Part shown: positions 3-18,651 of the stretch, piece after piece | Numbering within the stretch: the stretch's first letter is position 1 | Layout of the letters: every line of letters starts with the position of its first letter | IMG/VR virus record: IMGVR_UViG_3300034418_011550 | Span: 32,001 to 96,000 of that record | Source of the DNA: a virus | Strand: one strand, 5' to 3' | DNA length: 64,000 nucleotides | The notes under the pieces: model-generated | Told to the model about the DNA's origin: nothing | The model's database searches: none | What the model saw: the letters and a program-made list of their open reading frames with translations, nothing else | Translations under genes and position numbers: made by a program

Positions 3-3000
3 GGAACCAGTGGTAGTTCAGGTTCATCAGGAACTAGCGGCTCATCAGGTTCATCAGGAACATCAGGTAGTTCAGGTTCATCCGGAACAAGTGGTTCTTC
101 AGGTTCATCAGGTACTAGTGGTTCATCTGGTTCATCTGGTTCAAGCGGAACTTCTGGTTCATCAGGTTCATCAGGTACTTCTGGTTCATCAGGAAGCAGT
201 GGTACTTCAGGTATAAGCGGTGTTAATGGAACAAGTGGTTCAAGCGGTTCTTCAGGTTCATCAGGATCTTCAGGTACAAGCGGTTCATCAGGTTCAAGTG
301 GCACAAGCGGTTCAAGTGGTAGTTCAGGTACAAGCGGTTCATCAGGTTCATCAGGGTCCTCAGGTACAAGTGGTTCATCCGGCTCATCAGGAACATCAGG
401 TTCTTCAGGAACATCTGGTAGTTCAGGTTCTTCAGGAACTAGTGGTTCATCTGGCTCATCTGGCTCATCAGGTACTAGTGGCTCATCAGGCTCATCTGGT
501 ACTTCAGGTTCTTCAGGCACTAGTGGTTCAAGTGGTTCATCAGGTACATCAGGTAGTTCTGGCAGCTCAGGAACTTCTGGCTCATCAGGCTCATCTGGAA
601 CTTCTGGCTCATCAGGTAGCAGTGGTACTTCAGGTATAAGCGGTGTAAACGGAACTTCTGGTTCATCAGGTTCATCAGGAACTTCAGGTTCATCAGGGTC
701 CTCAGGTACAAGTGGTTCATCTGGTTCTTCAGGCACCTCTGGTTCTTCTGGCTCATCTGGAACTTCTGGTTCATCAGGATCTAGTGGTACTAGCGGTTCA
801 AGTGGTTCTTCAGGAACTAGTGGTTCATCTGGTTCATCTGGTTCAAGTGGTACATCAGGTTCTTCAGGTTCTTCAGGTACAAGTGGATCAAGTGGAACCT
901 CAGGCAGCTCAGGTTCATCAGGAACTTCAGGATCATCAGGCAGTTCAGGTTCAAGTGGAACAAGCGGAAGTTCAGGATCTTCAGGTACTTCAGGTTCATC
1001 TGGCTCATCTGGATCAAGTGGAACTTCAGGTTCATCAGGATCTTCAGGTACAAGTGGCTCATCAGGAACTAGTGGAAGTTCAGGTTCATCAGGTACTTCT
1101 GGTTCTAGTGGTTCTAGCGGCTCAAGCGGAACAAGTGGTTCAAGCGGTAGTTCAGGTACCTCAGGCTCATCTGGTTCTTCAGGTACATCAGGTATAAGTG
1201 GTGTTAATGGAACTAGCGGTTCATCTGGATCAAGTGGAACATCAGGTTCAAGTGGTTCATCAGGAACAAGTGGTTCAAGTGGTTCTTCTGGGACAAGTGG
1301 TTCAAGCGGAACATCAGGTAGCTCAGGTTCTTCAGGTACAAGTGGATCAAGTGGAACCTCAGGCAGCTCAGGTTCATCAGGAACTTCAGGATCATCAGGC
1401 AGTTCAGGTTCAAGTGGAACAAGCGGAAGTTCAGGTACTTCAGGAAGTTCTGGTTCTTCAGGTACAAGCGGTTCATCTGGTACTTCAGGTTCAAGTGGAA
1501 CTAGTGGTTCATCTGGTTCATCAGGATCATCTGGTTCTTCAGGAACTTCTGGCTCTTCAGGAACTAGTGGTTCATCAGGAACATCAGGTTCAAGTGGTTC
1601 ATCAGGTACATCAGGCAGCTCAGGTAGCTCAGGTACATCAGGCATATCAGGTGTAAATGGAACAAGCGGTTCATCAGGAACTTCAGGTTCTAGTGGTTCA
1701 TCAGGAACAAGCGGTTCATCAGGAACTTCAGGTTCATCTGGAACAAGTGGTAGTTCAGGTTCAAGTGGAACATCAGGCAGCTCAGGTTCAAGCGGAACTA
1801 GTGGTTCAAGCGGTTCATCAGGCACTTCAGGTTCATCTGGATCTAGTGGAACAAGTGGTTCAAGTGGTACTTCAGGTTCATCAGGCACTTCAGGTTCATC
1901 TGGTTCATCAGGTACTAGTGGTTCAAGCGGTTCATCAGGAACAAGCGGTTCAAGCGGTACTTCAGGTAGTTCAGGTACTTCAGGATCATCTGGCTCAAGT
2001 GGTACTTCAGGTTCATCTGGTTCAAGCGGAACTAGTGGTTCATCAGGTTCATCAGGTACTTCAGGATCTTCAGGATCTTCAGGTACTTCAGGTATAAGTG
2101 GTGTTAATGGTACTTCTGGTTCCTCAGGAACTAGCGGTTCATCAGGCACTTCAGGTTCAAGTGGTTCATCAGGAACTAGTGGATCAAGTGGTTCTAGCGG
2201 GACAAGTGGTTCAAGCGGTTCATCTGGAACATCAGGTTCTTCTGGTTCCTCAGGAACTAGTGGCTCAAGCGGTACTAGTGGAAGCTCAGGCTCATCAGGA
2301 ACATCTGGTAGTTCTGGTAGTTCAGGTACTAGTGGTAGTTCTGGTACTTCAGGTTCAAGCGGAACTAGTGGTTCATCAGGTTCATCAGGAACTTCTGGCT
2401 CATCTGGTTCATCAGGAATATCAGGAAGTTCAGGAACATCTGGCTCAAGCGGCTCATCAGGAACTAGTGGTTCTTCAGGTTCAAGTGGAACTAGTGGTTC
2501 TAGTGGAACTTCAGGTTCTTCAGGAACAAGTGGTTCTAGTGGCACTTCAGGTTCAAGTGGCTCATCAGGAACTTCTGGATCAAGCGGTTCATCAGGTACA
2601 TCAGGCTCAAGTGGCTCAAGTGGTTCAAGTGGTACTTCAGGAAGCTCAGGTTCAAGCGGAACAAGCGGCTCATCAGGAACTAGTGGTTCATCTGGCTCAA
2701 GTGGAACATCAGGTTCATCAGGAACAAGCGGCTCATCAGGAACAAGTGGAAGCTCTGGAACATCAGGTTCTAGTGGCTCATCAGGTACAAGTGGCTCATC
2801 AGGTAGCTCAGGTACCTCAGGTATATCAGGTGTAAATGGTACTTCAGGTTCTTCAGGAACTAGCGGAAGTTCAGGAACATCTGGCTCATCAGGCTCATCT
2901 GGTACTTCAGGTTCAAGTGGTTCATCAGGAACTAGTGGAAGCTCAGGTACTTCAGGTTCTTCAGGTACATCAGGCTCTTCTGGAACATCAGGTTCTAGTG

Positions 3001-4898
3001 GAAGTAGTGGTACTAGTGGTTCTTCAGGTTCATCAGGTACTTCAGGTTCTTCAGGTACATCAGGCTCTTCTGGAACATCAGGTTCTAGTGGAAGTAGTGG
3101 TACTAGTGGTTCTTCAGGTTCATCAGGTACTTCAGGATCATCAGGTACATCAGGCTCATCTGGAACTTCAGGTAGTAGTGGTTCATCTGGTACTTCAGGT
3201 TCAAGCGGTTCTTCAGGAACTAGTGGAAGTTCAGGTACTTCAGGTTCATCAGGAACTTCTGGTTCATCAGGTTCATCAGGAACTTCTGGTTCATCAGGTT
3301 CATCAGGAACTAGTGGATCAAGTGGTTCATCTGGTACCTCTGGTTCAAGTGGAACAAGTGGTTCATCAGGTTCATCAGGTACAAGCGGCTCATCAGGTAG
3401 CAGTGGTACTTCAGGTATAAGTGGAGTTAACGGAACTTCAGGTTCTAGTGGTACTTCAGGCTCATCAGGAACATCAGGTTCATCTGGATCAAGTGGCACT
3501 TCAGGTTCATCAGGTTCATCTGGAACCTCAGGTTCTAGTGGTACTTCTGGCTCATCAGGAACCTCAGGTTCAAGTGGAAGTTCAGGAACATCTGGTTCAT
3601 CTGGATCAAGTGGCACTTCAGGTAGCTCAGGTTCAAGTGGTTCTTCAGGTTCATCTGGAACTAGTGGCTCAAGTGGAACTAGTGGTTCATCAGGAACAAG
3701 TGGATCTTCAGGTTCAAGTGGGACAAGTGGCTCATCCGGTTCTTCAGGTACTTCTGGAAGTTCAGGAACATCTGGTTCAAGTGGTTCATCAGGTACTTCA
3801 GGTTCATCAGGTAGCTCAGGTTCATCTGGAACTTCAGGCTCATCAGGTACTTCAGGTTCTTCAGGAACTAGTGGTTCATCTGGTTCAAGTGGTACCTCAG
3901 GTAGCTCAGGTTCATCAGGAACCTCAGGTTCATCTGGAACAAGTGGTTCAAGTGGAACTTCAGGCTCATCAGGCTCATCAGGTACAAGCGGCTCAAGTGG
4001 TAGCTCAGGTACTTCAGGTATATCAGGTGTAAATGGAACAAGCGGTTCATCAGGAACTAGTGGAAGTTCAGGTACATCTGGTTCATCAGGTTCTTCAGGT
4101 ACAAGTGGTTCATCAGGTTCATCAGGAACTAGTGGCTCATCTGGTACTTCAGGTTCATCAGGAACTAGCGGTAGTTCAGGAACATCAGGTTCTTCAGGTT
4201 CAAGTGGTACTTCAGGTAGCTCAGGCTCAAGCGGAACTAGTGGTTCCTCTGGTTCAAGTGGTACCTCAGGTTCTTCTGGATCTAGTGGAACTAGTGGTTC
4301 AAGTGGTTCATCAGGAACAAGCGGTTCTTCAGGTTCTAGCGGCACATCAGGTTCAAGTGGTTCCTCTGGAACAAGCGGTTCATCAGGTTCAAGCGGAACC
4401 TCCGGCTCATCTGGAACTTCAGGTTCATCAGGTACTTCTGGTTCAAGTGGTACTTCAGGCTCATCAGGCTCATCGGGTACTTCAGGTAGTTCAGGATCAA
4501 GTGGAACCAGTGGCTCTTCAGGAACTAGTGGTAGCTCAGGCTCTTCAGGAACTTCAGGTAGCTCAGGTTCATCTGGAACTTCAGGCTCATCTGGAACTTC
4601 AGGATCAAGTGGAACTTCAGGTTCATCTGGTTCATCAGGTACAAGTGGTTCAAGTGGTTCATCAGGAACGTCAGGTTCATCTGGTTCTTCTGGAACTTCT
4701 GGATCAAGCGGAACATCAGGCTCATCCGGTACAAGCGGCTCAAGTGGTAGCTCAGGTACTTCAGGTATAAGTGGAGTTAATGGAACATCAGGTTCTTCAG
4801 GAACTAGTGGTTCAAGTGGTACTTCAGGAAGCTCAGGTTCAAGCGGAACAAGCGGCTCATCAGGAACTAGTGGTTCATCTGGCTCAAGTGGAACAAGT
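3..4898 (+). repeat. Coding tandem repeat (GSS/GTS)n, 9-nt period, with nine GISGVNGTS landmarks
   Basis: Landmarks at 210, 633, 1191, 1641, 2091, 2820, 3414, 4017 and 4764. All spacings are multiples of 9 nt. Confidence 0.95.
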
Positions 4899-5738
4899 GG
4901 TACAACTACTATAACTAATAACATAGATGATCGTGTATTAACAGCTACAGGTACAGCTACTATTAATGGTGAATCTAATCTAACATTTGATGGTAGTACA
5001 TTAGGAGTAATAGGCACAGTCGGAATCGGTACAGATAGTCCACTGTATCAACTCCATGTATCAAGTAGTACTGCTGCTTTAGGAGTATATGAAAGAGCAG
5101 GAGGAGCTGCCTTATATTTAGAAGGTCAGTTAACTCGAGGTGTATTAGGTACTGTAAGTACACATCCATTACTAATTGCATACAATAGTGTTGAAGTAGC
5201 AAGATTTACAGGAACATCATTTGATGTAACTGGATCTTTAAATGTAGGAACTGGAACTGATATAAACTTAATTGGAGGAGGAAATTTAGAAACCAACGGA
5301 GGAAATGTAAATACAACTGGAGGAAGTATTAACATCGGAGGAGGAGCTGTAAACGGTACAACCCCAGGATCTTCAGTCAATGTTGATGTTATTAATGCCA
5401 ATATTAAAAACTTTGATATTACTCATCCATCTAAAGGCGAACCTCATAGATTAAGATACTCAGTACTTGAAGGTCCAGAAATTGGTGTATATGTTAGAGG
5501 TAGATTAACTAATAACAATATAATTGAATTACCATATTATTGGGTTGACTTAGTACATGAAGATTCTATAACAGTAACTTTAACACCAATTGGTAAACAT
5601 CAAAACCTATATGTAATATCTGCAAACCCAGAAAAAGTGGTAGTAGGAATTGAAGAAGGAACAATTGATTGTTACTATGTAATATATGGAGAAAGAAAAG
5701 ATGTAGACAAATTAACAATTGAATACATTAAAGAATAA
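3..5738 (+). CDS. Giant Gly-Ser/Thr-Ser repeat fibre protein, 5'-truncated, >=1911 aa; ~544 G-X-Y triplets, then a beta-rich region and a C-terminal KNFDITHPSK...LEGPEIGVYVRG domain
   Basis: Frame +3 reads GTSGSSGSSGTS... from nt 3 and ends ...TIEYIKE at TAA 5736-5738. It is absent from the ORF track because its start lies outside the window. The tail after nt 4900 is fibre-like (VGIGTDSPLYQLHV). Confidence 0.9.
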   Translation, partial: GTSGSSGSSGTSGSSGSSGTSGSSGSSGTSGSSGSSGTSGSSGSSGSSGTSGSSGSSGTSGSSGSSGTSGISGVNGTSGSSGSSGSSGSSGTSGSSGSSGTSGSSGSSGTSGSSGSSGSSGTSGSSGSSGTSGSSGTSGSSGSSGTSGSSGSSGSSGTSGSSGSSGTSGSSGTSGSSGSSGTSGSSGSSGTSGSSGSSGTSGSSGSSGTSGISGVNGTSGSSGSSGTSGSSGSSGTSGSSGSSGTSGSSGSSGTSGSSGSSGTSGSSGSSGTSGSSGSSGSSGTSGSSGSSGTSGSSGTSGSSGSSGTSGSSGSSGSSGTSGSSGSSGTSGSSGSSGSSGTSGSSGSSGTSGSSGTSGSSGSSGTSGSSGSSGSSGTSGSSGSSGTSGSSGSSGTSGISGVNGTSGSSGSSGTSGSSGSSGTSGSSGSSGTSGSSGTSGSSGSSGTSGSSGTSGSSGSSGTSGSSGSSGSSGTSGSSGTSGSSGSSGTSGSSGTSGSSGTSGSSGSSGSSGSSGTSGSSGTSGSSGTSGSSGSSGTSGSSGSSGTSGISGVNGTSGSSGTSGSSGSSGTSGSSGTSGSSGTSGSSGSSGTSGSSGSSGTSGSSGSSGTSGSSGSSGTSGSSGTSGSSGTSGSSGSSGTSGSSGSSGTSGSSGTSGSSGTSGSSGSSGTSGSSGSSGTSGSSGSSGTSGSSGSSGTSGISGVNGTSGSSGTSGSSGTSGSSGSSGTSGSSGSSGTSGSSGSSGTSGSSGSSGTSGSSGTSGSSGSSGTSGSSGSSGTSGSSGTSGSSGTSGSSGSSGTSGSSGSSGISGSSGTSGSSGSSGTSGSSGSSGTSGSSGTSGSSGTSGSSGTSGSSGSSGTSGSSGSSGTSGSSGSSGSSGTSGSSGSSGTSGSSGTSGSSGSSGTSGSSGTSGSSGTSGSSGTSGSSGSSGTSGSSGSSGTSGISGVNGTSGSSGTSGSSGTSGSSGSSGTSGSSGSSGTSGSSGTSGSSGTSGSSGTSGSSGSSGTSGSSGSSGTSGSSGTSGSSGTSGSSGSSGTSGSSGSSGTSGSSGTSGSSGTSGSSGSSGTSGSSGSSGTSGSSGTSGSSGTSGSSGSSGTSGSSGSSGTSGSSGSSGTSGSSGTSGSSGSSGTSGSSGSSGTSGISGVNGTSGSSGTSGSSGTSGSSGSSGTSGSSGSSGTSGSSGTSGSSGTSGSSGSSGTSGSSGSSGTSGSSGSSGSSGSSGTSGSSGTSGSSGTSGSSGSSGTSGSSGSSGTSGSSGTSGSSGSSGTSGSSGSSGSSGTSGSSGTSGSSGTSGSSGSSGTSGSSGSSGTSGSSGTSGSSGTSGSSGSSGTSGSSGSSGTSGISGVNGTSGSSGTSGSSGTSGSSGSSGTSGSSGSSGTSGSSGTSGSSGTSGSSGTSGSSGSSGTSGSSGSSGTSGSSGSSGTSGSSGSSGTSGSSGSSGTSGSSGSSGTSGSSGSSGTSGSSGSSGTSGSSGTSGSSGTSGSSGTSGSSGSSGTSGSSGSSGTSGSSGTSGSSGSSGTSGSSGSSGTSGSSGTSGSSGTSGSSGSSGTSGSSGSSGTSGSSGSSGTSGSSGTSGSSGTSGSSGSSGTSGISGVNGTSGSSGTSGSSGTSGSSGSSGTSGSSGTSGSSGSSGTSGTTTITNNIDDRVLTATGTATINGESNLTFDGSTLGVIGTVGIGTDSPLYQLHVSSSTAALGVYERAGGAALYLEGQLTRGVLGTVSTHPLLIAYNSVEVARFTGTSFDVTGSLNVGTGTDINLIGGGNLETNGGNVNTTGGSINIGGGAVNGTTPGSSVNVDVINANIKNFDITHPSKGEPHRLRYSVLEGPEIGVYVRGRLTNNNIIELPYYWVDLVHEDSITVTLTPIGKHQNLYVISANPEKVVVGIEEGTIDCYYVIYGERKDVDKLTIEYIKE

Positions 5739-5745
5739 TATTTAT
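5737..5745 (+). promoter_or_regulatory. Candidate late promoter core ATATTTAT (class 2); representative copy
   Basis: Just upstream of starts at 5737, 18668, 19502, 19785, 21610, 22181, 23251, 25888, 32559, 41240, 48720, 54365, 56175 and 62787; mostly structural genes. Confidence 0.6.
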
Positions 5746-5750
5746 TATAA

Positions 5751-8390
5751 ATGGCTAAAAACGTCCAAATAATACCAGCATCAGGAACTGTAGATTTTCA
5801 AGATGGAACTCAATCAGTTATCCTGACAATGAAAAAATCAGGAGCTGTAGCTACAGGTATTGATATTTCTGTAAATGGTAGTGCTCCTGTGAGTATTCAA
5901 GGTACTCAAGGCACTACAGGTACTCAAGGTACTACTGGTCCTCAAGGTACAACAGGTACACAAGGAACAACAGGTACTCAAGGTATTCAAGGACGTCAAG
6001 GTGTAACAGGTCCACAAGGTACTACAGGTACCCAAGGTACTACAGGTACTCAAGGAGCAACCGGAACTCAAGGCACTACTGGTACTCAAGGCACTACTGG
6101 TACTCAAGGTACTACAGGCGCGCAAGGTATACAAGGTATAACAGGTAACACAGGTCCTACTGGTCCAACAGGCCCACAAGGTACAACAGGTGCTACAGGT
6201 TCACAAGGTACTACAGGCGCGCAAGGTATACAAGGTATAACAGGTAACACAGGTCCTACTGGTCCAACAGGCCCACAAGGTACAACAGGTACACAAGGTA
6301 CTTTAGGTCCTGTAGGTCCACAAGGAGCAATAGGTGCTCAAGGTATTCAAGGTGTTATAGGTCCTGTAGGAGCAACAGGTCCACAAGGAACAACCGGGGG
6401 AACAGGTCCAACAGGTCCTCAAGGCACTACTGGTACTCAAGGAACTATAGGTGCTCAAGGTATCCAAGGACGTCAAGGTATAACAGGTAACACTGGAGGA
6501 ACAGGTCCAACAGGTCCTCAAGGTACAACCGGGGGAACAGGTCCAACAGGTCCTCAAGGCACTACTGGTACTCAAGGAACTATAGGTGCTCAAGGTATAC
6601 AAGGTAGACAAGGTATAACAGGTAATACAGGCCCAATAGGACCAGATGGTCCTACAGGTCCTACAGGTTCACAAGGTACTACAGGCGCACAAGGTATACA
6701 AGGTATAACAGGTAACACAGGCGGAACAGGCCCAACTGGTCCAACAGGTCCAACTGGTCCAACTGGTCCACAAGGTACAACAGGTGCTCAAGGTATACAA
6801 GGTAGACAAGGTATAACAGGTAACACAGGCGGAACAGGTCCAACAGGTCCTCAAGGTACTTTAGGTCCTATAGGTCCTCAAGGAGCTATTGGTGCTCAAG
6901 GTATTCAAGGTATTATAGGTCCTGTAGGAGCTACTGGACCACAAGGAACAACAGGTGGAACAGGTCCAACAGGTCCTCAAGGCACTACTGGTACTCAAGG
7001 AACTACAGGTGCTCAAGGTATACAAGGACGTCAAGGTATAACAGGTAACACTGGAGGAACAGGTCCAACAGGTCCTCAAGGTACGACCGGGGGAACAGGT
7101 CCAACAGGTCCAACAGGTCCTCAAGGTACAACAGGTACCCAAGGAGCTATTGGTGCTCAAGGTATACAAGGTCGTCAAGGAATAACAGGTAATATAGGCC
7201 CAATAGGACCAGACGGTCCTACAGGCCCTACAGGCCCAACAGGCCCACAAGGAACAACTGGTGGAACAGGTGCTCAAGGTATACAAGGTAGACAAGGTAT
7301 AACAGGTAACACTGGAGGAACAGGCCCAACAGGTCCTCAAGGAACAACTGGAGGTACTGGAGGAACAGGTCCAACAGGTGCTCAAGGTATACAAGGTATA
7401 ACAGGTAACACTGGAGGAACAGGTCCAACAGGTCCTCAAGGAACAACTGGAGGTACTGGAGGAACAGGTCCAACAGGCCCACAAGGAACAACTGGAGGTA
7501 CTGGAGGAACAGGCCCAACAGGTGCTCAAGGTATACAAGGTATAACAGGTAACACTGGAGGAACAGGACCAACTGGTCCACAAGGAACAACAGGTGGAAC
7601 AGGAGGTACAGGACCAACTGGTCCACAAGGTACTATCGGAGCACAAGGTATTCAAGGACGTCAAGGTATAACAGGAGACCAAGGAAACCCAGGTGTCCCT
7701 GGAACTCAAGGTACTACTGGAGCAACAGGTACTCAAGGAACTACCGGTGCTCAAGGTATCCAAGGACGTCAAGGTATAACTGGTGGAACAGGAGGAACAG
7801 GTCCACAAGGCACAGCGGGTAGTAATGGAAGCACAGGTCCAACAGGTCCACAAGGTACAACAGGCGGAACAGGAGGAACAGGTCCAACAGGCCCACAAGG
7901 AACAACTGGTGGAACAGGAGGAACAGGTCCACAAGGTGCAGCAGGTAGTAATGGAAGCACAGGTCCAACAGGCCCACAAGGTACAACTGGTGGGTTTACT
8001 ACAAACTCAAACGCTCAAATTAACTCATTAGGTGTTAATACAACTGCTCCAGGTATTGCTGGAGAAATTAGAGCAACAGGTAACATTATAGCATTCTACT
8101 CAGATGCTAGATTAAAAACTAATGTTGAAAAAATTGAATCAGCTTTAGAATTAATTTCTAAACTTAGAGGTGTAAGATACAATTGGACTGAAGAAGCTGA
8201 AGCAATGGCCCCTTCAAGAGCTGGTAAAACAGAAATTGGAGTTATTGCTCAAGAAGTTGAAAAAGTACTTCCTGAAATAGTAGTTGATTGGGATGAATAT
8301 AAGACAGTAGTTTATGATAGATTAACAGCATTGTTGATTGAAGCTGTTAAAGAATTAATAGATGAAGTAAACCAATTAAAAAATAAATAA
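5751..8390 (+). CDS. Collagen-like tail fibre with C-terminal Peptidase S74 intramolecular chaperone
   Basis: About 232 G-X-Y triplets ([18 protein letters not shown]) at 5901-7989. The C-terminus [10 protein letters not shown]...[13 protein letters not shown]...LLIEAVKEL is the S74 signature. Confidence 0.92.
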
Positions 8391-9083
8391 ATGGCAATAC
8401 CTAGTACTAATGTTTATTTAGAAAATATTTATTGGGAAGCTCAATTTGGAGGAGGAAGTGGTAATCCTGGTAGTGGAATTAGTTTTGGAGACTTAGCAGG
8501 ATATTCTTATTTTGATGGTTCTAATGGTAGTGGTACTATATCCTACAACGCCTGGGGCCAAAATTCAGCAGGAGGTGTAAATAGAATATATGGCTTACCT
8601 ATAGCTGCTAACCCCGGACCTTATGAATTTAATGATTATAAAAGTTTAGTTTATTTTTATGATCAAAGTAGTTATCAAGTTACTTTAACTGTAATAAATA
8701 ACCTAGCTCCACCTCCACCTCCACCTCCTCCTATTAATAACGATGTACAAGACTGCAATTTATCCTTTTATGACAATTCAGGAACTTATCTTTATTTAGC
8801 AGGTAACTCAGGAGGAGTACCAACATTTAGTAGTTTTGGCCCTACAGACATATCACAAAATAATACCCCTATTATAGCCCAAGGTTATTGGTATATAGAT
8901 TTAAGTATGGATCCTGGTTTTGGAGGAGGTTCTTGTGACATAAGCATAAATGGAACAGGATATGTTACAGGAGCAGGAATAGGTGGAGGTAGTAACCTTT
9001 TTGATTGGAATACATATGGAGCGGCGGCTATAGCTAATGCTGGATCTTTTATTGGATTAGATGTGGTAGTAACTGTTTATTAA
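8391..9083 (+). CDS. Probable fibre-associated virion protein, Gly-rich with a poly-Pro tract
   Basis: Abuts the fibre gene; G/S/N/Y-rich; contains APPPPPPPP. Confidence 0.5.
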   Translation: MAIPSTNVYLENIYWEAQFGGGSGNPGSGISFGDLAGYSYFDGSNGSGTISYNAWGQNSAGGVNRIYGLPIAANPGPYEFNDYKSLVYFYDQSSYQVTLTVINNLAPPPPPPPPINNDVQDCNLSFYDNSGTYLYLAGNSGGVPTFSSFGPTDISQNNTPIIAQGYWYIDLSMDPGFGGGSCDISINGTGYVTGAGIGGGSNLFDWNTYGAAAIANAGSFIGLDVVVTVY

Positions 9084-9085
9084 TT

Positions 9086-9283: not shown

Positions 9284-9285
9284 AA

Positions 9286-9316: not shown

Positions 9317-9325
9317 TAATTAATT

Positions 9326-9907: not shown

Positions 9908-9908
9908 T

Positions 9909-10898: not shown

Positions 10899-12120
10899 TA
10901 TTTTAAAGAATTTTATAGATAATCCATATCATCCAGAAACAAATTTTGTATTTGGTGAACAATATTATCAAGAAGGACATAAAGCAGCCGCTTTGTCTTT
11001 ATTTTTAAGAGCAGCAGAATATGGTTTTGATAAAGATTTAACATATGAAGCTTTAATTAAAGTAGCTTTATGTTTAAAAGAAATAGAAGGACGTCCTCAT
11101 TCAACTAGAGGAGCTATCTTAAATGCTATTACTTTTGATCGTGAACGTCCTGAAGCTTATTATCATTTAAGTTATGATTATCAAGTTAAAGGAGAATGGC
11201 AAGAATCATATTTAGCAGCTGTTCAAGGTTTAGATAAAATAAAAAATATCAAACCTACTTTAACTAGTATTGATTTTCCTGGTGAATATGCTTTAATATT
11301 CCAAAAAGCAGTAGCAGGATGGTGGATTGGATATTGTGATGAGTCAAGAAAATTATTTAATCACTTATTACAGGAATATTCTATGCGTCCTGAATTTGTA
11401 GAAGCTTGCTATAATAATTTATCTACAATTCATGGGATTCAATATCCAACGTTAACTTATACTAAAGAAGAACACTCAAAATTAAGATACAAATTTAAAA
11501 ATTCTGAAAAAATTGAGAAAAATTATTCCCAAACTTACCAGGATTTGTTTGTATTAAGTATGTTAGATGGAAAAGAAAAAGGCACTTATGTTGAAATAGG
11601 AGCAGCTGATCCTTTCCATAATAGTAATACAGCTTTATTAGAAAAAGAATTTAACTGGACAGGGGTATCATTAGAAATCAATGAAGAAGAAGTAAATAAA
11701 TTTAACTCTCAACGTTCTAACGCGTGCCTTTTACAAGATGCTACAGTTGTCAACTATGAAGAGTTATTTGTTAATAACAACTTTAGTGAGGTTATAGATT
11801 ACCTTCAAGTTGATTGTGAACCGGCTGAAATAACATTTAAAGTGTTACTTTCAATTCCTTTTGATAAATATAAATTTAGAGTAATCACCTTTGAACATGA
11901 TTATTATTTAAATCATTCTTTAGATTATAGAAATCTTTCTAGAAAATTCTTAGAAGCTCATGGTTATAAAAGAGTAGTAGGAGATATAGCTCCTGACTCA
12001 AATAGTACATTTGAAGACTGGTGGATACATCCTGAATTAGTAGATTCTGAAATTTTTACAGCAATGGTAGATTATTCTGAAAAAATTAAAAGAGCAGATC
12101 ATTATATATTAAATGGCTAA
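10891..12120 (+). CDS. TPR-like N-terminus fused to FkbM-type (Methyltransf_21) methyltransferase
   Basis: Helical YEAL/EAYYHL repeats; GTYVEIGAADP, IDYLQVDCE and VITFEHD motifs. Confidence 0.7.
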   Translation: MDNILKNFIDNPYHPETNFVFGEQYYQEGHKAAALSLFLRAAEYGFDKDLTYEALIKVALCLKEIEGRPHSTRGAILNAITFDRERPEAYYHLSYDYQVKGEWQESYLAAVQGLDKIKNIKPTLTSIDFPGEYALIFQKAVAGWWIGYCDESRKLFNHLLQEYSMRPEFVEACYNNLSTIHGIQYPTLTYTKEEHSKLRYKFKNSEKIEKNYSQTYQDLFVLSMLDGKEKGTYVEIGAADPFHNSNTALLEKEFNWTGVSLEINEEEVNKFNSQRSNACLLQDATVVNYEELFVNNNFSEVIDYLQVDCEPAEITFKVLLSIPFDKYKFRVITFEHDYYLNHSLDYRNLSRKFLEAHGYKRVVGDIAPDSNSTFEDWWIHPELVDSEIFTAMVDYSEKIKRADHYILNG

Positions 12121-12958
12121 TCAAGATTGGAAAATAACACCCTATGCTACTATGGAGATTACAACTAATCTACCTAAAAAAGGCTGTGTTGTTGATTGCA
12201 TTTTTTGTCCTCAAAGAACTTTAGTTAAAAATTATAATGGAACCCGTCATTTATCTTTAGATGACTTTAAAAGAGCAATAGATAAAATCCCAACAGAAGT
12301 TAGAATTACTTTTGCTGGTTTTACTGAACCTTGGACTAATAGGCATTGTACTGATATGTTACTTTACGCTTATGAAAAAGGACATAGAATAGCAGCATTT
12401 ACTACAGCTGTAGGAATGACAGTAGATGATGTAGAAAGACTTAAAGATGTTTCCTATGATAATGGTCCTAACGCTGGTTTTGTTTTACATTTACCTGACC
12501 AAGAAAGATTAGCAAAACATCCTATAACTCCTCGTTATATAGAAGTTATTGAAGCTTTCGGGCTCTATCAAGATTCTTTTAACACATTTCATTTAATGTC
12601 AATGGGTACTGTCCATGAATCTATTAATCATATTTTTAGTCATGCTAGCAATCCTGAAATGTGGTCTAGAGCAGGAAACTTAATAGGTGAAGCCATTCTA
12701 AAACCAGAACTGCTAAATGTTAAAGAATTATTCAGATCAGTATATCATGGTGAGTCACCTAAAACATGCGGCTGTATAGAAAATTTATACCATAACGTGA
12801 TGCTTCCAAACGGAGATGTATCTTTATGTTGTATGGATTATTCTTTAAGTTATATTATAGGAAATATGTTTGAACAAGAATATGAAGATGTTATTCCAAA
12901 ATTAAATTCTTGTTATGATATGTGTCGTTATTGTGAAAATGGAATTAACCCTAATTAA
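12113..12958 (+). CDS. Radical SAM enzyme with SPASM/twitch domain
   Basis: CVVDCIFC (CxxxCxxC); C-terminal CGC...PNGDVSLCCMD...CYDMCRYC. Confidence 0.85.
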   Translation: MANQDWKITPYATMEITTNLPKKGCVVDCIFCPQRTLVKNYNGTRHLSLDDFKRAIDKIPTEVRITFAGFTEPWTNRHCTDMLLYAYEKGHRIAAFTTAVGMTVDDVERLKDVSYDNGPNAGFVLHLPDQERLAKHPITPRYIEVIEAFGLYQDSFNTFHLMSMGTVHESINHIFSHASNPEMWSRAGNLIGEAILKPELLNVKELFRSVYHGESPKTCGCIENLYHNVMLPNGDVSLCCMDYSLSYIIGNMFEQEYEDVIPKLNSCYDMCRYCENGINPN

Positions 12959-12961
12959 AAT

Positions 12962-13963
12962 ATGAAATCAATAATTATAGTTTCTGCTTATTGCCCTGAT
13001 GATGAAAGAAAAACAATGCTTGAAAATTGTATTAATTCTCTTCAACCTATTAGAAAAGATTTTGATATTTTAATTTCAAGCCATTCTTATATTCCTGAAT
13101 ATATTAGTAAAAAAGTAGATTTTACTTTTTATGATGCTAACAATGATTTAATATATGATTGGGATTTAATGAATCTTCCATGGTTTTCACCTTATGAAGG
13201 TTTACATATAGTTTCTTCATTAATATCTAATTTTAGTACTTATTCTGCTTGTAATAGAATAATAATGGGTGGTTTAGGTATAGCTAAAAATTTTGGATAT
13301 GAAAAAGCCCATTATATAGATTATGATGCTATTATTAATGATTATTCTGAGTTTTATGAAAATAATGAATTACTAAATAAGTATGTAACAATCCAATATA
13401 AAAAAGAATACAGAAATTTTGATTGGAATGTTGAAGGTGGTGTAGGTGTTTTCCAATCAATAAATTTAAATAAAATAAATAAAATTTTTACAACATATGA
13501 TGAAAAAGAGTTATTAAAAATTCTAAAAGAAGCCCCTAATAAAACAAATGAAATTATATATCAGGATTTATATAAATTAGATGGAGAGGAAATATTGTAT
13601 AAAAACTGGGATGATTTACTAAATCAAGGAAACATATTTAATCAATCTATATCTACACAAAAAGATGATTTAAATGATTGGACTGTTCCTTTTTATGATA
13701 CTAAAACAGGTAAATTAAATGTTATTGTTTGGAACTCTAAAAAAGATTATCCTATTAATACTAGTTTTATTATAAATCAAGAAAAAATAATCACAATAAA
13801 CAATATAAACAAATACCAATGGAGTATAAGAGAAGTAGATGATATCAATAATGTTAATGAAATATTAATTATTGTTGATAACAAAATTAAAAACCACATC
13901 CTAATAAACACCCCAGAATTAAAAGAGAAATTTAAACGTAATAATCAAACACAATATAATTAA
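12962..13963 (+). CDS. Putative GT-A-like glycosyltransferase (paralogue 1)
   Basis: N-terminal Rossmann-like strand and a YIDYD DxD motif; similar to the next ORF. Confidence 0.45.
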   Translation: MKSIIIVSAYCPDDERKTMLENCINSLQPIRKDFDILISSHSYIPEYISKKVDFTFYDANNDLIYDWDLMNLPWFSPYEGLHIVSSLISNFSTYSACNRIIMGGLGIAKNFGYEKAHYIDYDAIINDYSEFYENNELLNKYVTIQYKKEYRNFDWNVEGGVGVFQSINLNKINKIFTTYDEKELLKILKEAPNKTNEIIYQDLYKLDGEEILYKNWDDLLNQGNIFNQSISTQKDDLNDWTVPFYDTKTGKLNVIVWNSKKDYPINTSFIINQEKIITINNINKYQWSIREVDDINNVNEILIIVDNKIKNHILINTPELKEKFKRNNQTQYN

Positions 13964-14887
13964 ATGAAAAAAATAGCTTTAATAACTAGTTTTTGCAATA
14001 ATAAGGAAAAAATTAATGTGTTAAAAAATAAATTAGAGACATTAAAAAATCTTAATATAGATACAATCCTTTATACAGCTATCCACCTCCCAGAAAAAAT
14101 TTATAAAAAAGCAGACTATACTATAATTTCAAAAGAAAACCTAGTATTTGATTGGCCTATAAAAGCTTACTATCAATGGACTGATATTATTATTGGAAAC
14201 CTAAACATTAAAATGAGTCGCACATACCCAGATTATGGTTATGCTGTTTTAAATCAAATTAAAAAAATGGCTAATTTAGCTTTATCTATGGATTATGATC
14301 ACTTTTTTATAATAGATTATGATACTCATATCACTGATGAAGTAAAAAATATTCTTTTAGACAGTAAACCAAATAGTTTTTTTCCATCAAAAAGAGAAAC
14401 ATCTGTTTGGCCTATAGGACTTCATTTAATATCTTTAAATAAAACTTATTTAAATAGGTTTAAAAATCTAATAACCCCAGAATCTTATCTAACTGAAAAA
14501 AATGGAGATGCTTTTTCATGGACTCATAAAGCTATAAAATTTATTCCTGCTGTTATTGAAAATGTTGAACCTATAGAAGATTTAGTTTATAATTTTAATG
14601 AGTTTGATTTTTTTAATTATTCTACAACAAATGAGTATAAATTATTTATTCATAAAACAGACTTTGATAATATAAAACTTCTTTTTTATGAATTTGAAGG
14701 AGTTAAAAATATAAAAATTATAAGTGATAATTTTGAAAAAGAATTTAATTTAAAAACTTGGGAACATATTGAATTACCATTTAATACTTGTTCTTTATTA
14801 AAAATTTTATGTAATGATGAAGAAATTGATTATACAAAAAACATAATTTCTATTGGACAAAATATTTTAACAATTAATAATATATGA
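13964..14887 (+). CDS. Putative GT-A-like glycosyltransferase (paralogue 2)
   Basis: IIDYD DxD motif; the N-terminus aligns with 12962..13963 (PEYISKKVDF vs PEKIYKKADY; DLIYDW vs LVFDW). Confidence 0.45.
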   Translation: MKKIALITSFCNNKEKINVLKNKLETLKNLNIDTILYTAIHLPEKIYKKADYTIISKENLVFDWPIKAYYQWTDIIIGNLNIKMSRTYPDYGYAVLNQIKKMANLALSMDYDHFFIIDYDTHITDEVKNILLDSKPNSFFPSKRETSVWPIGLHLISLNKTYLNRFKNLITPESYLTEKNGDAFSWTHKAIKFIPAVIENVEPIEDLVYNFNEFDFFNYSTTNEYKLFIHKTDFDNIKLLFYEFEGVKNIKIISDNFEKEFNLKTWEHIELPFNTCSLLKILCNDEEIDYTKNIISIGQNILTINNI

Positions 14888-15723
14888 TAAATGTAACTTA
14901 TAATAGAGAAAATAATTCAACTTTAGTAGAATTAAATAATTTAACTTTAATTAAAGAACACCTTCCATTAACTATCCAATTTAAAAATATTATTTCAAAA
15001 GAAATCCATTATGAAGTTAAATTAACAGACAATTGTTGGGCAGAATGGAAAGGTGGAGAATTTATTACTGATGTTTTGATTTATTCTTCTAATGGGACTT
15101 TATTACATGAACATAAATGGGATGTCACTGTTAATGGAGATATTCATGAAAAAATGTTATGGTACTATTTAAAAGGTAGACAATTACAAGGATTAAAATC
15201 TAACGGTTTAGTTATTGGTGCTCATGATGGAAGAAACGGACATTGGATATACCCCGTTAAAGAAAATTTAACAGAAGCTACTTTAATTGACGGTAGTGAT
15301 AACCAGTTTAAAAAACTAGAAGAAAATTATTTTAATTATTTAAATACAAAATTTAAAAATATTATAGTTACAACAGATGGATCTGATGTAGAATGGTATC
15401 AAGGCGGAGAAGGCTATACAGATACAGTAATACCATCAGTAATCAATGAATGGTTAGACTCTTCAGAAATAACTAAAACGTATAGAAAAAGTATATCAAT
15501 TAATGATTTAATAAAAGATCAAAATTATGATTGGTTACATTTAGATGTAGAAGGTTTAGATGGAGATTTAATTTTAGCTTTGGAATCTAGACCTAATTTA
15601 ATAATTTATGAAGATGAAAATTTAGATATAATTACTAAAGCTAAGCTTGATATTTGGTTTTTAGCAAATTCTTATAAAACAATTAAACACACTTGTAATA
15701 CACTAGCTATTAAAAATGACTAA
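14884..15723 (+). CDS. Beta-domain fused to FkbM-type methyltransferase
   Basis: LVIGAHDG, LIDGS and LHLDVEGLD motifs. Confidence 0.65.
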   Translation: MINVTYNRENNSTLVELNNLTLIKEHLPLTIQFKNIISKEIHYEVKLTDNCWAEWKGGEFITDVLIYSSNGTLLHEHKWDVTVNGDIHEKMLWYYLKGRQLQGLKSNGLVIGAHDGRNGHWIYPVKENLTEATLIDGSDNQFKKLEENYFNYLNTKFKNIIVTTDGSDVEWYQGGEGYTDTVIPSVINEWLDSSEITKTYRKSISINDLIKDQNYDWLHLDVEGLDGDLILALESRPNLIIYEDENLDIITKAKLDIWFLANSYKTIKHTCNTLAIKND

Positions 15724-17995
15724 ACCAAAAGTATATGTTCATGGTTCTTATATAGGAACTACAGGTTATAACCAACATACAAGAGACTTTTTTAGAGAGT
15801 TATCTAAACATTTACAATTAAAAGTTAGGAATTTCACAATTGGTAAAACATGGGAAAGTTTTAATAATACCCCTCATAATAATGAACCTTATATTAATGA
15901 AATAGATAAATCTATTTTATATGAACAGATATTATGGAATGATAAGGGTGGGAGAGATAACTATAAAATATATTCTGACAAATCTAAAGAATTTCTACAT
16001 GATTTAAATATTGTTTTATGTGAAACTAATCATCATTTATTTTATGATGGATACAATGGTCCAAAAATAGCTTATAATGTTTGGGAAACAACCCAACAAC
16101 CAGAAGAATTTTTTAATAAATTAAAAGAATTCGATGAATTATGGGTTCCTTCAAAATGGCAGCGTGATGTAACTATTAAACAAGGCTACCCAAAGGATAA
16201 AATTAAAGTTGTTCCTGAAGGAGTTGATATTCATACTTTTTACCCTGAAGAAACAACTCATGAGTTAACTTCAGATGGTAGATTTAAATTCTTTTTAGCA
16301 GGTAGATGGGATTATAGAAAATCAACTAAAGAAATTATTGAAACATTTTTAAATACATTTAATGAAAATGATCCTGTTGACTTAATTGTTTCTATAGATA
16401 ATCCTTTTTCAGGAGATGGTTTAGAAACAACAGAAAATAGATTAAAATATTATGGTTTAACAGATCCAAGAATTAAAGTAGTTCATTTTCCATCTAGAGA
16501 AGATTATATTAAAATACTAAAATCATGTAATGTGTTTTTATCTTGTGCTCGTTCTGAGGGTTGGAATTTACCTTTAATTGAGGCAATGGCCTGTGGTATA
16601 CCCTCTATTTATTCAAACTGTTCAGGTCAACTTGAATTTGCTGAAAATAAAGGAATACCAATAAATATATTAGGTGAAAAATCAGCAAATGATTCATCAT
16701 ATAATCATTTTAATGATTACACAGGTAATTATTATGAACCTGATTTTAACCATTTACAACTAATGATGATGTATTCTTATAAAAAGTATGATGAATGTAA
16801 GAAAAATGCTTTAAAAGAATCAGAAGAAATTAAACATAATTTTAGTTGGGAAAAAGTAGGACAAATTGGTTATAAAACTATAATAGAATTTTATGAAAGG
16901 AATAAACATAAAAATGCTCAATTAAAAAATGAAATAAAAATTAGTTATTTTGATGGTCCTAAAATAGAAATTGTAGGAGATAAACTAGAACAATATCATA
17001 TTGAATTTTTAGATGAAAATAATAATATTATTCATGAGGACACTATCACTAATAATATGTGGACAAAATGTTCTAGAACCTATTATACTAAATGGAAAAT
17101 TAAAGTTAATGGAAATATAATTGAAGAACTTAACTTAAATAATAAACGAGTATTAATAGGATTAGAGTCAAAATCTATTGGTGATACAATTGCTTGGACA
17201 CCCTATGCTGTTGATTTTGCTAAAAAACATAATTGTAAAGTAATTTTAAGCACATTTCATAACCATTGGTTTAAAGGATTAGAGACATATAAAGACATTG
17301 AATTTATAGAACCAGGACAATCAATAAACTGTGATGTTATATATCGAATAGGATGGTTTAGAGGAGAATCAGGTAAATGGGACAAATTTGAAATGTATCC
17401 TAATTATCCTCAAACTCAACCACTCCAAAAAACAGCATCAGATATTTTAGGTTTAGAATTTAAAGAATTAAATTATGGGATAAATTTTGCCCCAAAATCA
17501 AAATCAATAAAAACAAATTATATTGTTATTGCCCCTGAATCAACTGCTGGTTGTAAAGAGTGGCCTTATGACAGTTGGGTATCATTATCTAAAATGTTGC
17601 GTGAATTAGGATACACAGTAGTAACACTTACAAATAAACCCTATAATATAAAAGGTAATTTAAATATTCACGGTAAAACATTAAATGAATCTATGGATAT
17701 TCTTTATAATGCTAAATTTTTAATAGGATTAAGTTCAGGACTATCTTGGATAAATTGGGCTTTAGGAAAACAAACAGTGATGATTAGTGGTTTTTCTCAA
17801 AAAGATCATGAATTTATATCTAATAATATAAGAATACAAAATGAACATGCTTGTAATTCATGTTGGAATAATACTAACTTTATTTTTGACCCTGGAAATT
17901 GGGATTGGTGCCCAATATGGGAAGGAACAGATAAACAACATATTTGTGAAAAATCAATCTCACCATTAACTGTATTTAATTTATTACCTTTATGA
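15716..17995 (+). CDS. GT4 glycosyltransferase fused to an Aah/TibC-like (BAHT) iron-finger protein O-heptosyltransferase
   Basis: GT4 motifs AYNVWET, GRWDYRKS and RSEGWNLPLIEAMACG. The C-terminal half has SIGDTIAWTPY, GLSSGLSWINWALGK, MISGFS and C-x2-C-x15-C-x11-C (17852-17947). Confidence 0.8.
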   Translation: MTKPKVYVHGSYIGTTGYNQHTRDFFRELSKHLQLKVRNFTIGKTWESFNNTPHNNEPYINEIDKSILYEQILWNDKGGRDNYKIYSDKSKEFLHDLNIVLCETNHHLFYDGYNGPKIAYNVWETTQQPEEFFNKLKEFDELWVPSKWQRDVTIKQGYPKDKIKVVPEGVDIHTFYPEETTHELTSDGRFKFFLAGRWDYRKSTKEIIETFLNTFNENDPVDLIVSIDNPFSGDGLETTENRLKYYGLTDPRIKVVHFPSREDYIKILKSCNVFLSCARSEGWNLPLIEAMACGIPSIYSNCSGQLEFAENKGIPINILGEKSANDSSYNHFNDYTGNYYEPDFNHLQLMMMYSYKKYDECKKNALKESEEIKHNFSWEKVGQIGYKTIIEFYERNKHKNAQLKNEIKISYFDGPKIEIVGDKLEQYHIEFLDENNNIIHEDTITNNMWTKCSRTYYTKWKIKVNGNIIEELNLNNKRVLIGLESKSIGDTIAWTPYAVDFAKKHNCKVILSTFHNHWFKGLETYKDIEFIEPGQSINCDVIYRIGWFRGESGKWDKFEMYPNYPQTQPLQKTASDILGLEFKELNYGINFAPKSKSIKTNYIVIAPESTAGCKEWPYDSWVSLSKMLRELGYTVVTLTNKPYNIKGNLNIHGKTLNESMDILYNAKFLIGLSSGLSWINWALGKQTVMISGFSQKDHEFISNNIRIQNEHACNSCWNNTNFIFDPGNWDWCPIWEGTDKQHICEKSISPLTVFNLLPL

Positions 17996-18651
17996 TAAAC
18001 TTAGAAAATTTTAATTGGGGCCCAACATCAGAATGGTATAAAGATCAACTTACTAGAGAAATGTTTGAAGAAAACATTTATGAAAAATATTTTCCTGTTG
18101 AAGAAGGAGATATAGTAGTTGACTTTGGAGCCTCTATAGGAGACTTTATCTGGTCTATTAAGGATAAAAAACCAAAACATTGTTGGGTTGTTGAACCTTT
18201 AAATTCATATTTTGATATTTTACAAGAAAATTTATTAGGTTATTCTGTTTCTTTTATTAAAGCTTTTCTTAGTCAAGAAGAAACAACAGAAGTACAATGG
18301 GATGGGTTAGCTAGTGAATGTAGAAGTTTAACTTTTAAAAAATTTATAAAAGAAAATAATATTAAATATATTGATTTTTTAAAAACAGATTGTGAAGGAG
18401 GTGAGTATAGCATCTTCACAGAAGAAAATATAGAGTATGTTTTAAACAACATTAGAAAAATATCAGGAGAATGGCATTTAAGCACTCCTGAATTAAAAGA
18501 AAAATTTAGAAATTTTAGGGATAACTACTTAATTAAATTTAATAATTTTGAAGTTTATTCTGTAGACGGTGTTAATATCAAATGGGATTTATGGAATGAA
18601 CATTTTATAGAGTATTATAATGAAGTTATAATTCATATAGATAATCGTTAA
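17992..18651 (+). CDS. FkbM-family methyltransferase
   Basis: GDIVVDFGASIG, VVEP and IDFLKTDCEGGEY motifs. Confidence 0.85.
   Translation: MINLENFNWGPTSEWYKDQLTREMFEENIYEKYFPVEEGDIVVDFGASIGDFIWSIKDKKPKHCWVVEPLNSYFDILQENLLGYSVSFIKAFLSQEETTEVQWDGLASECRSLTFKKFIKENNIKYIDFLKTDCEGGEYSIFTEENIEYVLNNIRKISGEWHLSTPELKEKFRNFRDNYLIKFNNFEVYSVDGVNIKWDLWNEHFIEYYNEVIIHIDNR

Follow-up and report, generated by a model that had tools for sequence, protein, structure and literature searches.

To our knowledge, protein O-glycosyltransferases of the BAHT family have so far been known only as virulence-associated modifiers of autotransporters. In the TibC-TibA and Aah-AIDA-I systems of Escherichia coli (TIGR04414; PDB 4RAP/4RB4; PMC4358343), the enzyme gene stands beside the gene of a long repetitive surface protein, a beta-helical autotransporter, many serines of which are O-glycosylated in the cytoplasm. 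We describe here a member of this family encoded by a virus, in a 64,000-nucleotide stretch of DNA (positions 32,001 to 96,000 of IMG/VR virus record IMGVR_UViG_3300034418_011550; the whole stretch is called the window below). The enzyme is fused to a GT4 glycosyltransferase and is encoded downstream of two Gly-X-Y fibre genes, the first of which (fibre 1) is giant and consists of Ser/Thr-rich repeats. We put at roughly 60% the probability of the complete mechanism that this arrangement suggests, in which an island built around the BAHT and GT4 domains glycosylates the Ser/Thr repeats of fibre 1 and the glycan is then extended and methylated. A sequence-only reading of the window had proposed a locus of substrate plus writers; that proposal is supported for the BAHT-family enzyme and the Ser/Thr-rich fibre, which co-occur in phages and in bacteria, and is not supported for the enzyme block as one system, since a propeller module proved to be separate.

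The window enzyme shares with TibC and Aah an N-terminal beta domain, the catalytic Asp, the phosphate-binding Thr/Lys, an equivalent of Trp305 and a four-Cys iron finger, and it resembles them in its place beside a long repetitive surface-protein gene, whose product would, by our proposal, likewise be O-glycosylated at many sites in the cytoplasm. It differs in that its neighbour is a Gly-X-Y fibre and not a beta-helical autotransporter (no autotransporter gene adjoins it), in its fusion to GT4, in the replacement of Arg286 by Ser, in a shorter thumb, and in belonging to the other half of the family tree. Mycobacteriophages offer a second parallel: there, as reported by Freeman et al. (2023; PMC10527164), phage-encoded glycosyltransferases decorate the phage's own structural proteins, as we propose here, although the sites there lie in C-terminal tails of capsid and tail-tube proteins and the enzymes are of other families, whereas here thousands of sites on a collagen-like fibre would be primed by a BAHT. 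Gly-X-Thr repeats with O-glycosylated Thr are found, according to work cited in PMC11923368, in BclA of the Bacillus exosporium (Daubenspeck 2004) and in Riftia cuticle collagen (Mann 1996). These proteins share collagen-like repeats with the window's fibres, and in model peptides glycosylation makes the triple helix form (PMC11923368). Their repeats contain Pro and their enzymes are unrelated to those described here, whereas fibre 1 is Pro-free, Ser-dominated and far longer.

The serine-rich repeat adhesins of Gram-positive bacteria are glycosylated by a priming enzyme, GtfA/GtfB, and by extending enzymes such as GlyE, all encoded beside the Ser-rich repeat protein. The window likewise places a primer and several extending GT-A and GT-B enzymes by a repeat gene, and GlyE is among the matches to one of its GT-A folds; the priming family is different, however, and the phage lacks accessory Sec genes, so that the likeness is one of organisation and not of homology. 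Finally, the 'host recognition cluster' of pelagimyophages and cyanomyophages (PMC7029224; PMC12801897; Synechococcus phage DSL-LC02) contains, among its tail-fibre genes, a propeller annotated as 'MGP' or 'beta-mannosyltransferase' and a TPR/FkbM protein like those of the window. The papers on these phages read the cluster as host lipopolysaccharide (LPS) modification or DNA protection, and include neither a TibC-type enzyme nor a link to collagen-like fibres. Full-text literature searches found no paper linking TibC or the BAHTs to phages or to collagen-like proteins; what appears to be new here, judging from sequence, is a known enzyme family with a new class of acceptor in a new setting. 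The features at the centre of the proposal are these.

3-5738, plus strand: fibre 1, the 3' part of a giant gene that is open at the 5' end of the window; proposed acceptor of the BAHT domain
15716-16915, plus strand: GT4 domain (GT-B fold, retaining-type family); proposed extender of the first sugar
16916-17995, plus strand: BAHT (TibC/Aah-family) protein O-glycosyltransferase domain; proposed primer of the fibre-repeat Ser/Thr
17992-18651, plus strand: FkbM-family methyltransferase, a firm assignment

Three observations carry the argument: the family membership of the enzyme, the conservation of its catalytic residues, and the co-variation of enzyme and repeat. The sequence-only reading had described 15716-17995 as a GT4 fused to an Aah/TibC-like domain, and the 759-residue product bears this out. 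It matches TibC (PDB 4rap) over residues 426-751 with a phmmer E-value of 5.1e-35 and exceeds the cut-off of the NCBIfam equivalog TIGR04414 over residues 405-755 (214.1 bits against 200); its N-terminal part matches PF00534 (1.4e-13) and phrog_2170 (9e-30), and in two relatives GT4 is encoded by one or more separate genes adjoining the BAHT. The catalytic Asp of TibC, which is the residue changed to Ala in the second deposited sequence (4rb4; Asp110 by alignment count), corresponds to D490, whose loop, S-I-G-D-T, is aligned with T-L-G-D-L in TibC. This Asp is kept by all 46 phage sequences, by all 41 classical rows and by 33 of the 34 bacterial rows in the repeat-linked branch described below. 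The iron-finger residues C713, C716, C732 and C744 align with TibC Cys 339, 342, 358 and 370 and are invariant in 46 phage homologues; in the residue comparison all four are present in 28 of 29 phage rows, the exception being a gap. Among the donor contacts, T610 (Thr or Ser across the rows), K614 and W678 are conserved as the counterparts of Thr226 and Lys230, which in TibC bind the beta-phosphate, and of Trp305, which contacts heptose O4; each iron-finger Cys of TibC is essential (PMC4358343). Asp, Thr/Lys, the Trp305 equivalent and the four Cys are thus retained in 28 or 29 of the 29 phage rows, and the persistence of Asp and Cys in 46 different phage sequences, with identities as low as about 35%, argues for purifying selection. 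We take 16916-17995 to be a genuine but atypical BAHT-family protein O-glycosyltransferase, a view that carries no commitment to heptose as the sugar. The FkbM gene that follows it (PF05050, 2.1e-8; TIGR01444, 39.6 bits against a cut-off of 37.7) lies after the BAHT in most close relatives as well.

The two Gly-X-Y fibres that had been noticed directly before the enzyme block are present, with 545 triplets in the first and 233 in the second. In fibre 1 the in-window repeat runs without a break (GSS 326, GTS 199, GIS 10 and GVN 9 triplets) and holds 1,062 Ser/Thr residues among 1,635, with no Pro and no charged residue. The fibre ends in a non-repeat domain of about 275 residues that corresponds to phrog_17490 (2e-46) and for which a sequence-only PDB search returned no relative. 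Homologous giant fibres of related phages have open frames of about 2,570 to 5,170 amino acids. The long opposite-strand open reading frame (ORF) at 2-5017 is a shadow of the repeat; the plus-strand frame runs on into the conserved domain and has homologues with long frames. Gly occupies every third residue of a long unbroken run in both fibres, as in collagen, and the usual stabilisers of the collagen helix, Pro or hydroxyproline (Hyp) or Lys-Glu/Asp pairs, are wholly lacking from fibre 1.

Phage loci were compared in two sets: 35 IMG/VR loci found with the fusion protein, and 80 IMG/VR loci picked by the sheath protein so as not to select on the enzyme. In all 35 of the former the BAHT lies just upstream of the sheath module, and in many of them G-S/T-S fibres lie further upstream. 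Among the sheath-picked loci with at least 9 kb of upstream DNA, 18 were BAHT-positive and 10 BAHT-negative. When contigs were read further along, essentially all BAHT-positive ones with enough upstream DNA showed giant GSS/GTS fibres. No Gly-X-Y run of at least 8 triplets was found on either strand of the 10 BAHT-negative loci, of 6 more with 6-8 kb upstream, or of Flavobacterium phage immuto. A search of the whole records of seven BAHT-negative contigs (two of them 71-78% complete) likewise found the fibre repeats absent, and four of these records, searched whole for a BAHT, contained none. On the sheath tree, BAHT and repeat always change jointly; of these changes, which number at least 7, 4 fall on well-supported branches. 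Loci that carry the C-terminal domain of fibre 1 without repeats lack the BAHT too; therefore the enzyme tracks the repeat. Minimal islands in distant relatives, which read fibre(s), GT4, GT4, [FkbM], BAHT, sheath, suggest a conserved core of fibre, BAHT and GT4, usually with FkbM. The pairing also occurs in other layouts: in Microcystis phage Mel-JY01, where a 1,226-residue GT4-X-BAHT protein is encoded near a GTS fibre; in locus L350, where a convergent GT4-BAHT gene lies right behind a GSS fibre; and in contig G023.

Two of these genomes merit separate comment. In Mel-JY01 (PP395634; positions 1-2298 of our locus L001) the plus strand reads as a 149-triplet G-T/S-S collagen-like repeat, and the annotated ORFs, which are on the minus strand, are probably shadows of it; the fibre gene may wrap around the ends of the record. 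Contig G024 was for a time regarded as a BAHT-less phage with Gln/Thr-type giant fibres and the propeller module, a reading withdrawn when a whole-record search found a BAHT-like gene (positions 1414-2448 of locus L353, on IMG/VR contig 3300025889_000190). This gene keeps the Asp loop, has lost the entire iron-finger region and adjoins a fibre with 'HAEG' repeats; the giant fibres there are of the Gln/Thr type, not the GSS type.

The bacterial survey scanned one genome per prokaryote species with the alignment of the phage BAHT domain and yielded 80 loci, which were placed in a tree with 26 phage sequences. The tree splits into two halves. The classical half (42 rows) comprises Burkholderia, Caballeronia, Enterobacteriaceae, Acetobacter, Oxalobacter, Elusimicrobia and one Chloroflexota metagenome-assembled genome; an S/T-rich Gly-X-Y run lies within 3 kb in none of the 42, and in the classical rows checked, Kosakonia and Elusimicrobium, the BAHT directly precedes an AIDA-type autotransporter. 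The other half holds all the phage rows together with 37 bacterial rows, 24 of which have an S/T-rich run of at least 10 triplets within 3 kb, with shorter runs in 3 more. The bacterial repeat neighbours are genes of 100-316 codons whose products carry a signal peptide or lipobox as well as (GSS/GTS/GTA)n stretches, and the GTS proteins among them match PF01391. The co-occurrence of (GSS)n fibres with BAHT genes, which the sequence-only reading had offered as a check, is thus strongly positive in phages and independently positive in bacteria. The bacterial pairing, which linkage inside a phage cassette cannot account for, is the strongest argument for the repeat as acceptor, and since the same pairing of enzyme and repeat recurs in many phages and bacteria, fibre 1 is probably sugar-coated.

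One bacterial example is found in Methylobacter luteus IMV-B-3098 (positions 8947-11137 of locus L142), where the BAHT and a GTS/GTA repeat protein of 283 residues form a two-gene unit among ordinary chromosomal genes. Similar two-gene units occur at about 27 other bacterial loci, in Methylococcales, Arenicellales, Polaromonas, Acidiferrobacterales and others, and some loci have two or three repeat proteins with poly-Asp tails.

These surveys bear on two other explanations. The BAHT might be aimed at another Ser/Thr-rich virion protein, or at a host protein, and the Gly-Ser-Thr fibres might be unmodified flexible spacers. GSS-type sequences are typical disordered linkers, and other structural proteins of the window, as well as a variable ORF at 18682-19503, are also rich in Ser and Thr. 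Yet the (G-S/T-S/T/A)n repeat is the sole feature that co-varies with this BAHT branch in phages and bacteria; the C-terminal fibre domain, when free of repeats, occurs without the BAHT, and relatives that lack the BAHT still have sheath, tube and other structural genes. We find a different target quite unlikely. The second explanation would have the island be a mosaic without a common target, its BAHT inactive or decaying and the co-occurrence an effect of cassette inheritance. The island's G+C content (24-29%) is the lowest in the window, its gene content is very variable among relatives, and the BAHT-like gene of G024 has no iron finger, all of which would fit such decay. Against this, the catalytic Asp and the four Fe-binding Cys have been kept in 46 phage sequences as far apart as about 35% identity, and the same pairing forms a two-gene chromosomal unit in several bacterial orders; we consider a purposeless mosaic highly improbable.

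Between fibre 1 and the fusion gene lie the second fibre and the remaining enzymes.

5751-8390, plus strand: fibre 2, with 233 collagen-like triplets (Pro at X, Thr/Gln at Y) and a C-terminal S74 intramolecular chaperone
8391-9083, plus strand: 230-residue Gly/Asn-rich protein with a poly-Pro stretch, directly behind the fibres
9326-9907, plus strand: 2-oxoglutarate (2OG)-Fe(II) oxygenase, PKHD/PiuC-like, of the prolyl-4-hydroxylase superfamily
9888-10898, plus strand: beta-propeller, GH130/GT108-like
10891-12120, plus strand: TPR N-terminal half and FkbM-like C-terminal half
12113-12958, plus strand: small radical SAM/SPASM enzyme of a large viral family
12962-13963, plus strand: GT-A glycosyltransferase (GT8-like) with a C-terminal beta-sandwich
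13964-14887, plus strand: GT-A paralogue of 12962-13963
14884-15723, plus strand: probable FkbM-like methyltransferase domain behind an N-terminal extension of about 100 residues

The ten genes of 9326-18651 abut or overlap by a few bases in an operon-like packing, inside the structural gene run and with the tail sheath gene next. Operon boundaries could not be read from a promoter and terminator scan of 5500-20000, where sites were no more frequent than in shuffled sequence. In fibre 2, 68 residues are Pro and 12 are charged; its chaperone matches Peptidase_S74 (PF13884, 7.7e-20), and many tail-fibre PHROGs match the protein. Homologues of the protein at 8391-9083 (30-71% identity) stand behind fibres in five related loci; searches of Pfam, PHROG and NCBIfam with it gave no match.

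All of the enzymes that the sequence-only reading had named are present at the positions given, some with a firmer assignment than others. The 2OG-Fe(II) hydroxylase is present (PF13640, 6.8e-15; phrog_61, 5e-36; PDB 3dkq and PiuC), and its inclusion in a fibre system was not borne out: nothing links it to the fibres, and the PKHD/PiuC-like family is very common in marine phages. A role as collagen prolyl hydroxylase was considered and rejected, having no specific support; the examined stretches of a relative with a Pro-rich collagen contain no homologue. The radical SAM/SPASM enzyme has the expected CX3CX2C motif (C25-x3-C29-x2-C32), with SPASM (PF13186, 1.9e-4) just over its cut-off (22.1 bits against 21.5) and Radical_SAM (PF04055, 2.1e-6) just under (28.5 against 29.5); both domains are present in its viral family, whose Atlas clusters reach 1,554 members, mostly viral. 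Of three FkbM domains claimed, that at 17992-18651 is firm and that at 14884-15723 is probable, whereas that at 10891-12120 is weak, its Pfam match (0.0099) lying below the cut-off. The 279-residue product of 14884-15723 found no Pfam match and no relative in a sequence-only PDB search, and hhalign pairs it with the FkbM family of 17992-18651 (88%, E 2.9e-6), with the G-x-G and D-x-E-G motifs aligned. Some homologues of 10891-12120 of the same length carry PF05050, the N-terminal half gives a TPR-like match, and one homologue form is fused to a radical SAM/SPASM enzyme such as the window's next gene encodes.

The two proteins noted for their DxD motifs are here assigned more closely. For 12962-13963 an AlphaFold2 (AF2) model (pLDDT 92.4) has the GT-A glycosyltransferase fold, with Foldseek matches to LgtC, glycogenin and GlyE at about 1e-5; the TM-score is low (~0.38) because the alignment covers the N-terminal domain only. 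Its D-Y-D motif lies at residues 120-122, and H117, Y121 and D122 are invariant in 26 homologues. The product of 13964-14887 is its paralogue (BLASTP, 28% identity over the first 130 residues, E 5e-9, D-Y-D motif included).

The supposed GH-like propeller also held up: the AF2 model of 9888-10898 (pLDDT 83.5) was placed by Foldseek with GH130/GT108 folds (6q4z at 4.8e-8, 9erg, 7fip, 5b0p and 5ay9; E 5e-8 to 1e-5, TM 0.5-0.6), the best structural matches being Leishmania GT108 mannosyltransferases and GH130 beta-mannoside phosphorylases/synthases. The sequence itself has no Pfam match, and PDB searches with it, singly and as a profile, yielded no relative. On the strength of the model, the propeller is probably a beta-mannosyl-transferring enzyme. 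It has more than 3,300 homologues, many of them fused to FkbM or GT25 domains. In 80 IMG/VR loci picked by the propeller, the TPR-FkbM partner was present in 80 and a BAHT in 2. Propeller and TPR-FkbM are thus a separate, very widespread phage module, nearly always without BAHT and without GSS fibres, and the enzyme block may well not be a single system. Gly-X-Y runs lie nearby in 37 of the 47 propeller loci of at least 12 kb and mostly have the chemistry of fibre 2, including GPT, not that of fibre 1; in loci with fibre-2-type S74 fibres, the propeller is within 10 kb in only 7 of about 30. Since such fibres are common without a propeller, the link between the two remains a lead, and we would put the odds somewhat against the module serving fibre 2. 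In the phage isolate collection the propeller occurs in two isolates only, both Synechococcus phages without BAHT. In one of them, DSL-LC02 (positions 11267-23078 of locus L217), a block of three genes on the opposite strand comprises the propeller ('beta-mannosyltransferase') and two FkbM genes; it is flanked on one side by a collagen-like protein and two tail-fibre genes with GTT/GTQ repeats and on the other by a tail fibre of 1,787 residues.

Several observations weigh against glycosylation of fibre 1 by the BAHT island. BAHTs of the TibC/Aah kind take heptose from ADP-heptose. In TibC, Arg286 contacts adenine N1 and is said to set the specificity for ADP-sugars, and the iron finger recognises a folded beta-helix, an acceptor very unlike a Gly-X-Y repeat (PMC4358343). 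The equivalent of Arg286 is Ser659 in the window enzyme; Arg is kept in 41 of 41 classical BAHTs, but in the repeat-linked branch only 15 of 29 phage rows and 10 of 34 bacterial ones have it. The beta-hairpin thumb region has 19 residues instead of the 29 of classical members. Because of the Arg-to-Ser change and a thumb shorter by about 10 residues, both donor and oligomeric state may differ from those of TibC, which assembles into a ring-shaped dodecamer. Searches of a 92%-complete relative, of Mel-JY01 and of three further relatives turned up neither gmhA nor hldE; a search of relatives for gmhA and rfaE domain II gave just a weak cytidylyltransferase-like fragment at one contig end, and the 'cytidylyltransferase-like' protein of Mel-JY01 is a marginal Pfam match. 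Within the window Pfam detects no nucleotide-sugar synthesis genes, as had been noted from the sequence. The suggested Aah/TibC-like O-heptosylation does not survive these comparisons well: heptose is doubtful as the transferred sugar because the adenine-reading Arg is Ser and because gmhA and hldE are missing from the relatives searched. As to the pairing in phages, a sign test on the 4 well-supported contrasts gives p = 0.125, a value limited by there being just four secure contrasts; joint gain and loss could partly reflect linkage, since fibre and BAHT lie in one cassette; and a few BAHT-positive contigs (G002/L023, L015/L019), whose flanks are short, show no S/T fibre.

The GT-A enzymes and the GT25-fused propeller homologues also resemble LPS-type enzymes. 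The glycosyltransferases and methyltransferases could accordingly remodel glycans of the host envelope (LPS O-chain or capsule), for example as a block to superinfection, and merely share a hypervariable host-recognition region with the fibres; clusters of this kind in pelagimyophages and cyanomyophages are normally interpreted in this way (PMC7029224; PMC12801897). Such a reading draws on the likeness of the GT-A enzymes to LgtC/GT8, on the fusion of propeller relatives to GT25 'LPS' transferases, on an Atlas lead to WavE, and on the occurrence of the propeller and TPR-FkbM module in hundreds of phages without BAHT. It accounts poorly for the BAHT itself, since BAHTs act on protein O-sites and not on lipid-linked glycans (PMC4358343), since the presence of the enzyme goes with that of GSS/GTS repeats both in phages and at bacterial loci outside them, and since the genes stand in a late structural run between fibres and sheath. 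For the island as a whole we judge envelope remodelling unlikely; for the part of the block outside the BAHT it could still hold.

Returning to glycosylation of fibre 1, we infer the functional steps, with the identity of the acceptor, their order and their consequence for the fibre, from the enzyme families and the genes around them. Acting in the host cytoplasm late in infection, the BAHT domain would place a first sugar on Ser/Thr hydroxyls of the giant (G-S/T-S)n fibre, by analogy with TibC and Aah, before or during fibre assembly. The fused GT4, and perhaps both GT-A enzymes, would lengthen this sugar, and the adjacent FkbM methyltransferase or methyltransferases would O-methylate the glycan. 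Propeller and TPR-FkbM, with the radical SAM enzyme, form a separate mobile unit that may serve the Thr/Gln-type fibre 2 or add more sugars. The end product would be a densely glycosylated fibre, which the glycan may stiffen or fold. The collagen helix is normally held by Pro/Hyp or by Lys-Asp/Glu pairs, and galactosylation of Thr is needed for a (Gly-Pro-Thr)10 peptide, otherwise a random coil, to fold (PMC11923368); because fibre 1 lacks both Pro and charge pairs, a stiffening or folding role of the glycan is plausible by analogy. A glycosylated fibre 1 could equally be a mucin-like brush instead of a helix.

A wider version of the proposal would recognise a second major TibC/Aah branch dedicated to Gly-(Ser/Thr)-(Ser/Thr/Ala) repeats, in small secreted proteins and lipoproteins of bacteria and in phage fibres thousands of residues long. 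The O-glycan would let a chain free of Pro and of charge fold or stiffen (a 'collagen code'), and the window would combine two orthogonal pairs of writer and substrate: BAHT/GT4 would act on the GSS/GTS fibre, propeller/TPR-FkbM on the one with Thr/Gln repeats. We regard this version as speculative and rather doubtful. Should glycosylation of fibre 1 be correct, abundant aquatic myoviruses attach sugars to their own longest appendages, which would change the view of adsorption, of particle stability and of the "LPS genes" of marine phages that are routinely assigned to host-surface remodelling. The BAHT family would gain a new class of acceptor and a large unstudied branch in free-living Methylococcales, Arenicellales and Polaromonas. 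The fibre would show, in a natural setting, whether O-glycans by themselves suffice to order a Gly-Ser-Ser chain, and enzyme and repeat might be turned into a simple enzyme-tag pair with which to glycosylate proteins densely.

The source phage, a large myovirus of aquatic origin, has as its nearest isolates Flavobacterium phage immuto (53% sheath identity) and Mel-JY01 (about 50%), and a related sheath is found on at least 594 IMG/VR contigs; from relatives alone, we would guess at a Bacteroidota host. By the ORF list, every sizeable ORF of the window is on the plus strand. G+C content is about 30% overall, with 24-29% in the enzyme block and 47-51% in the fibre genes, the latter because of Gly, Ser and Thr codons. 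Further features are as follows.

19817-21595, plus strand: tail sheath
21633-22121, plus strand: tail tube, followed by baseplate and tail proteins and then, also on the plus strand, by a replication module with gp32-like and RecA-like proteins, DnaB, ribonucleotide reductase, family-B DNA polymerase and clamp loader, plus GroEL and Hsp20
46014-46865, plus strand: QueC
47442-47906, plus strand: PTPS/QueD-like protein
47909-48721, plus strand: radical SAM QueE-like protein
48979-49479, plus strand: phosphoribosyltransferase
49527-50216, plus strand: GTP cyclohydrolase I

The last five form a full preQ0-type 7-deazaguanine gene set (46014-50216) inside the replication module, and they probably modify the phage DNA. 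This bears on one more explanation, that the enzymes of the block glycosylate or methylate phage DNA bases. Phage glycosyltransferases are reported often to act on DNA (Markine-Goriaynoff 2004; Pyle 2024); however, BAHT, GT4, GT8-like, GH130/GT108-like and FkbM enzymes are not among the known DNA-modifying families, and the 7-deazaguanine genes are a separate set in another module. We attach almost no weight to a DNA target.

Three minor observations concern the rest of the window. The gene at 22219-22959, after the tail tube, overlaps in another frame a 112-residue ORF (22904-23242) just ahead of the probable tape-measure gene. A protein of 442 residues adjoining the ribonucleotide reductase (41254-42582) has an EF-hand calcium-binding motif as its only recognised domain. 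Finally, the window encodes Hsp20 (56235-56669) and a full-length GroEL (57505-59118; phrog_5725, 3e-158), and these phage chaperones may help very large structural proteins to fold.

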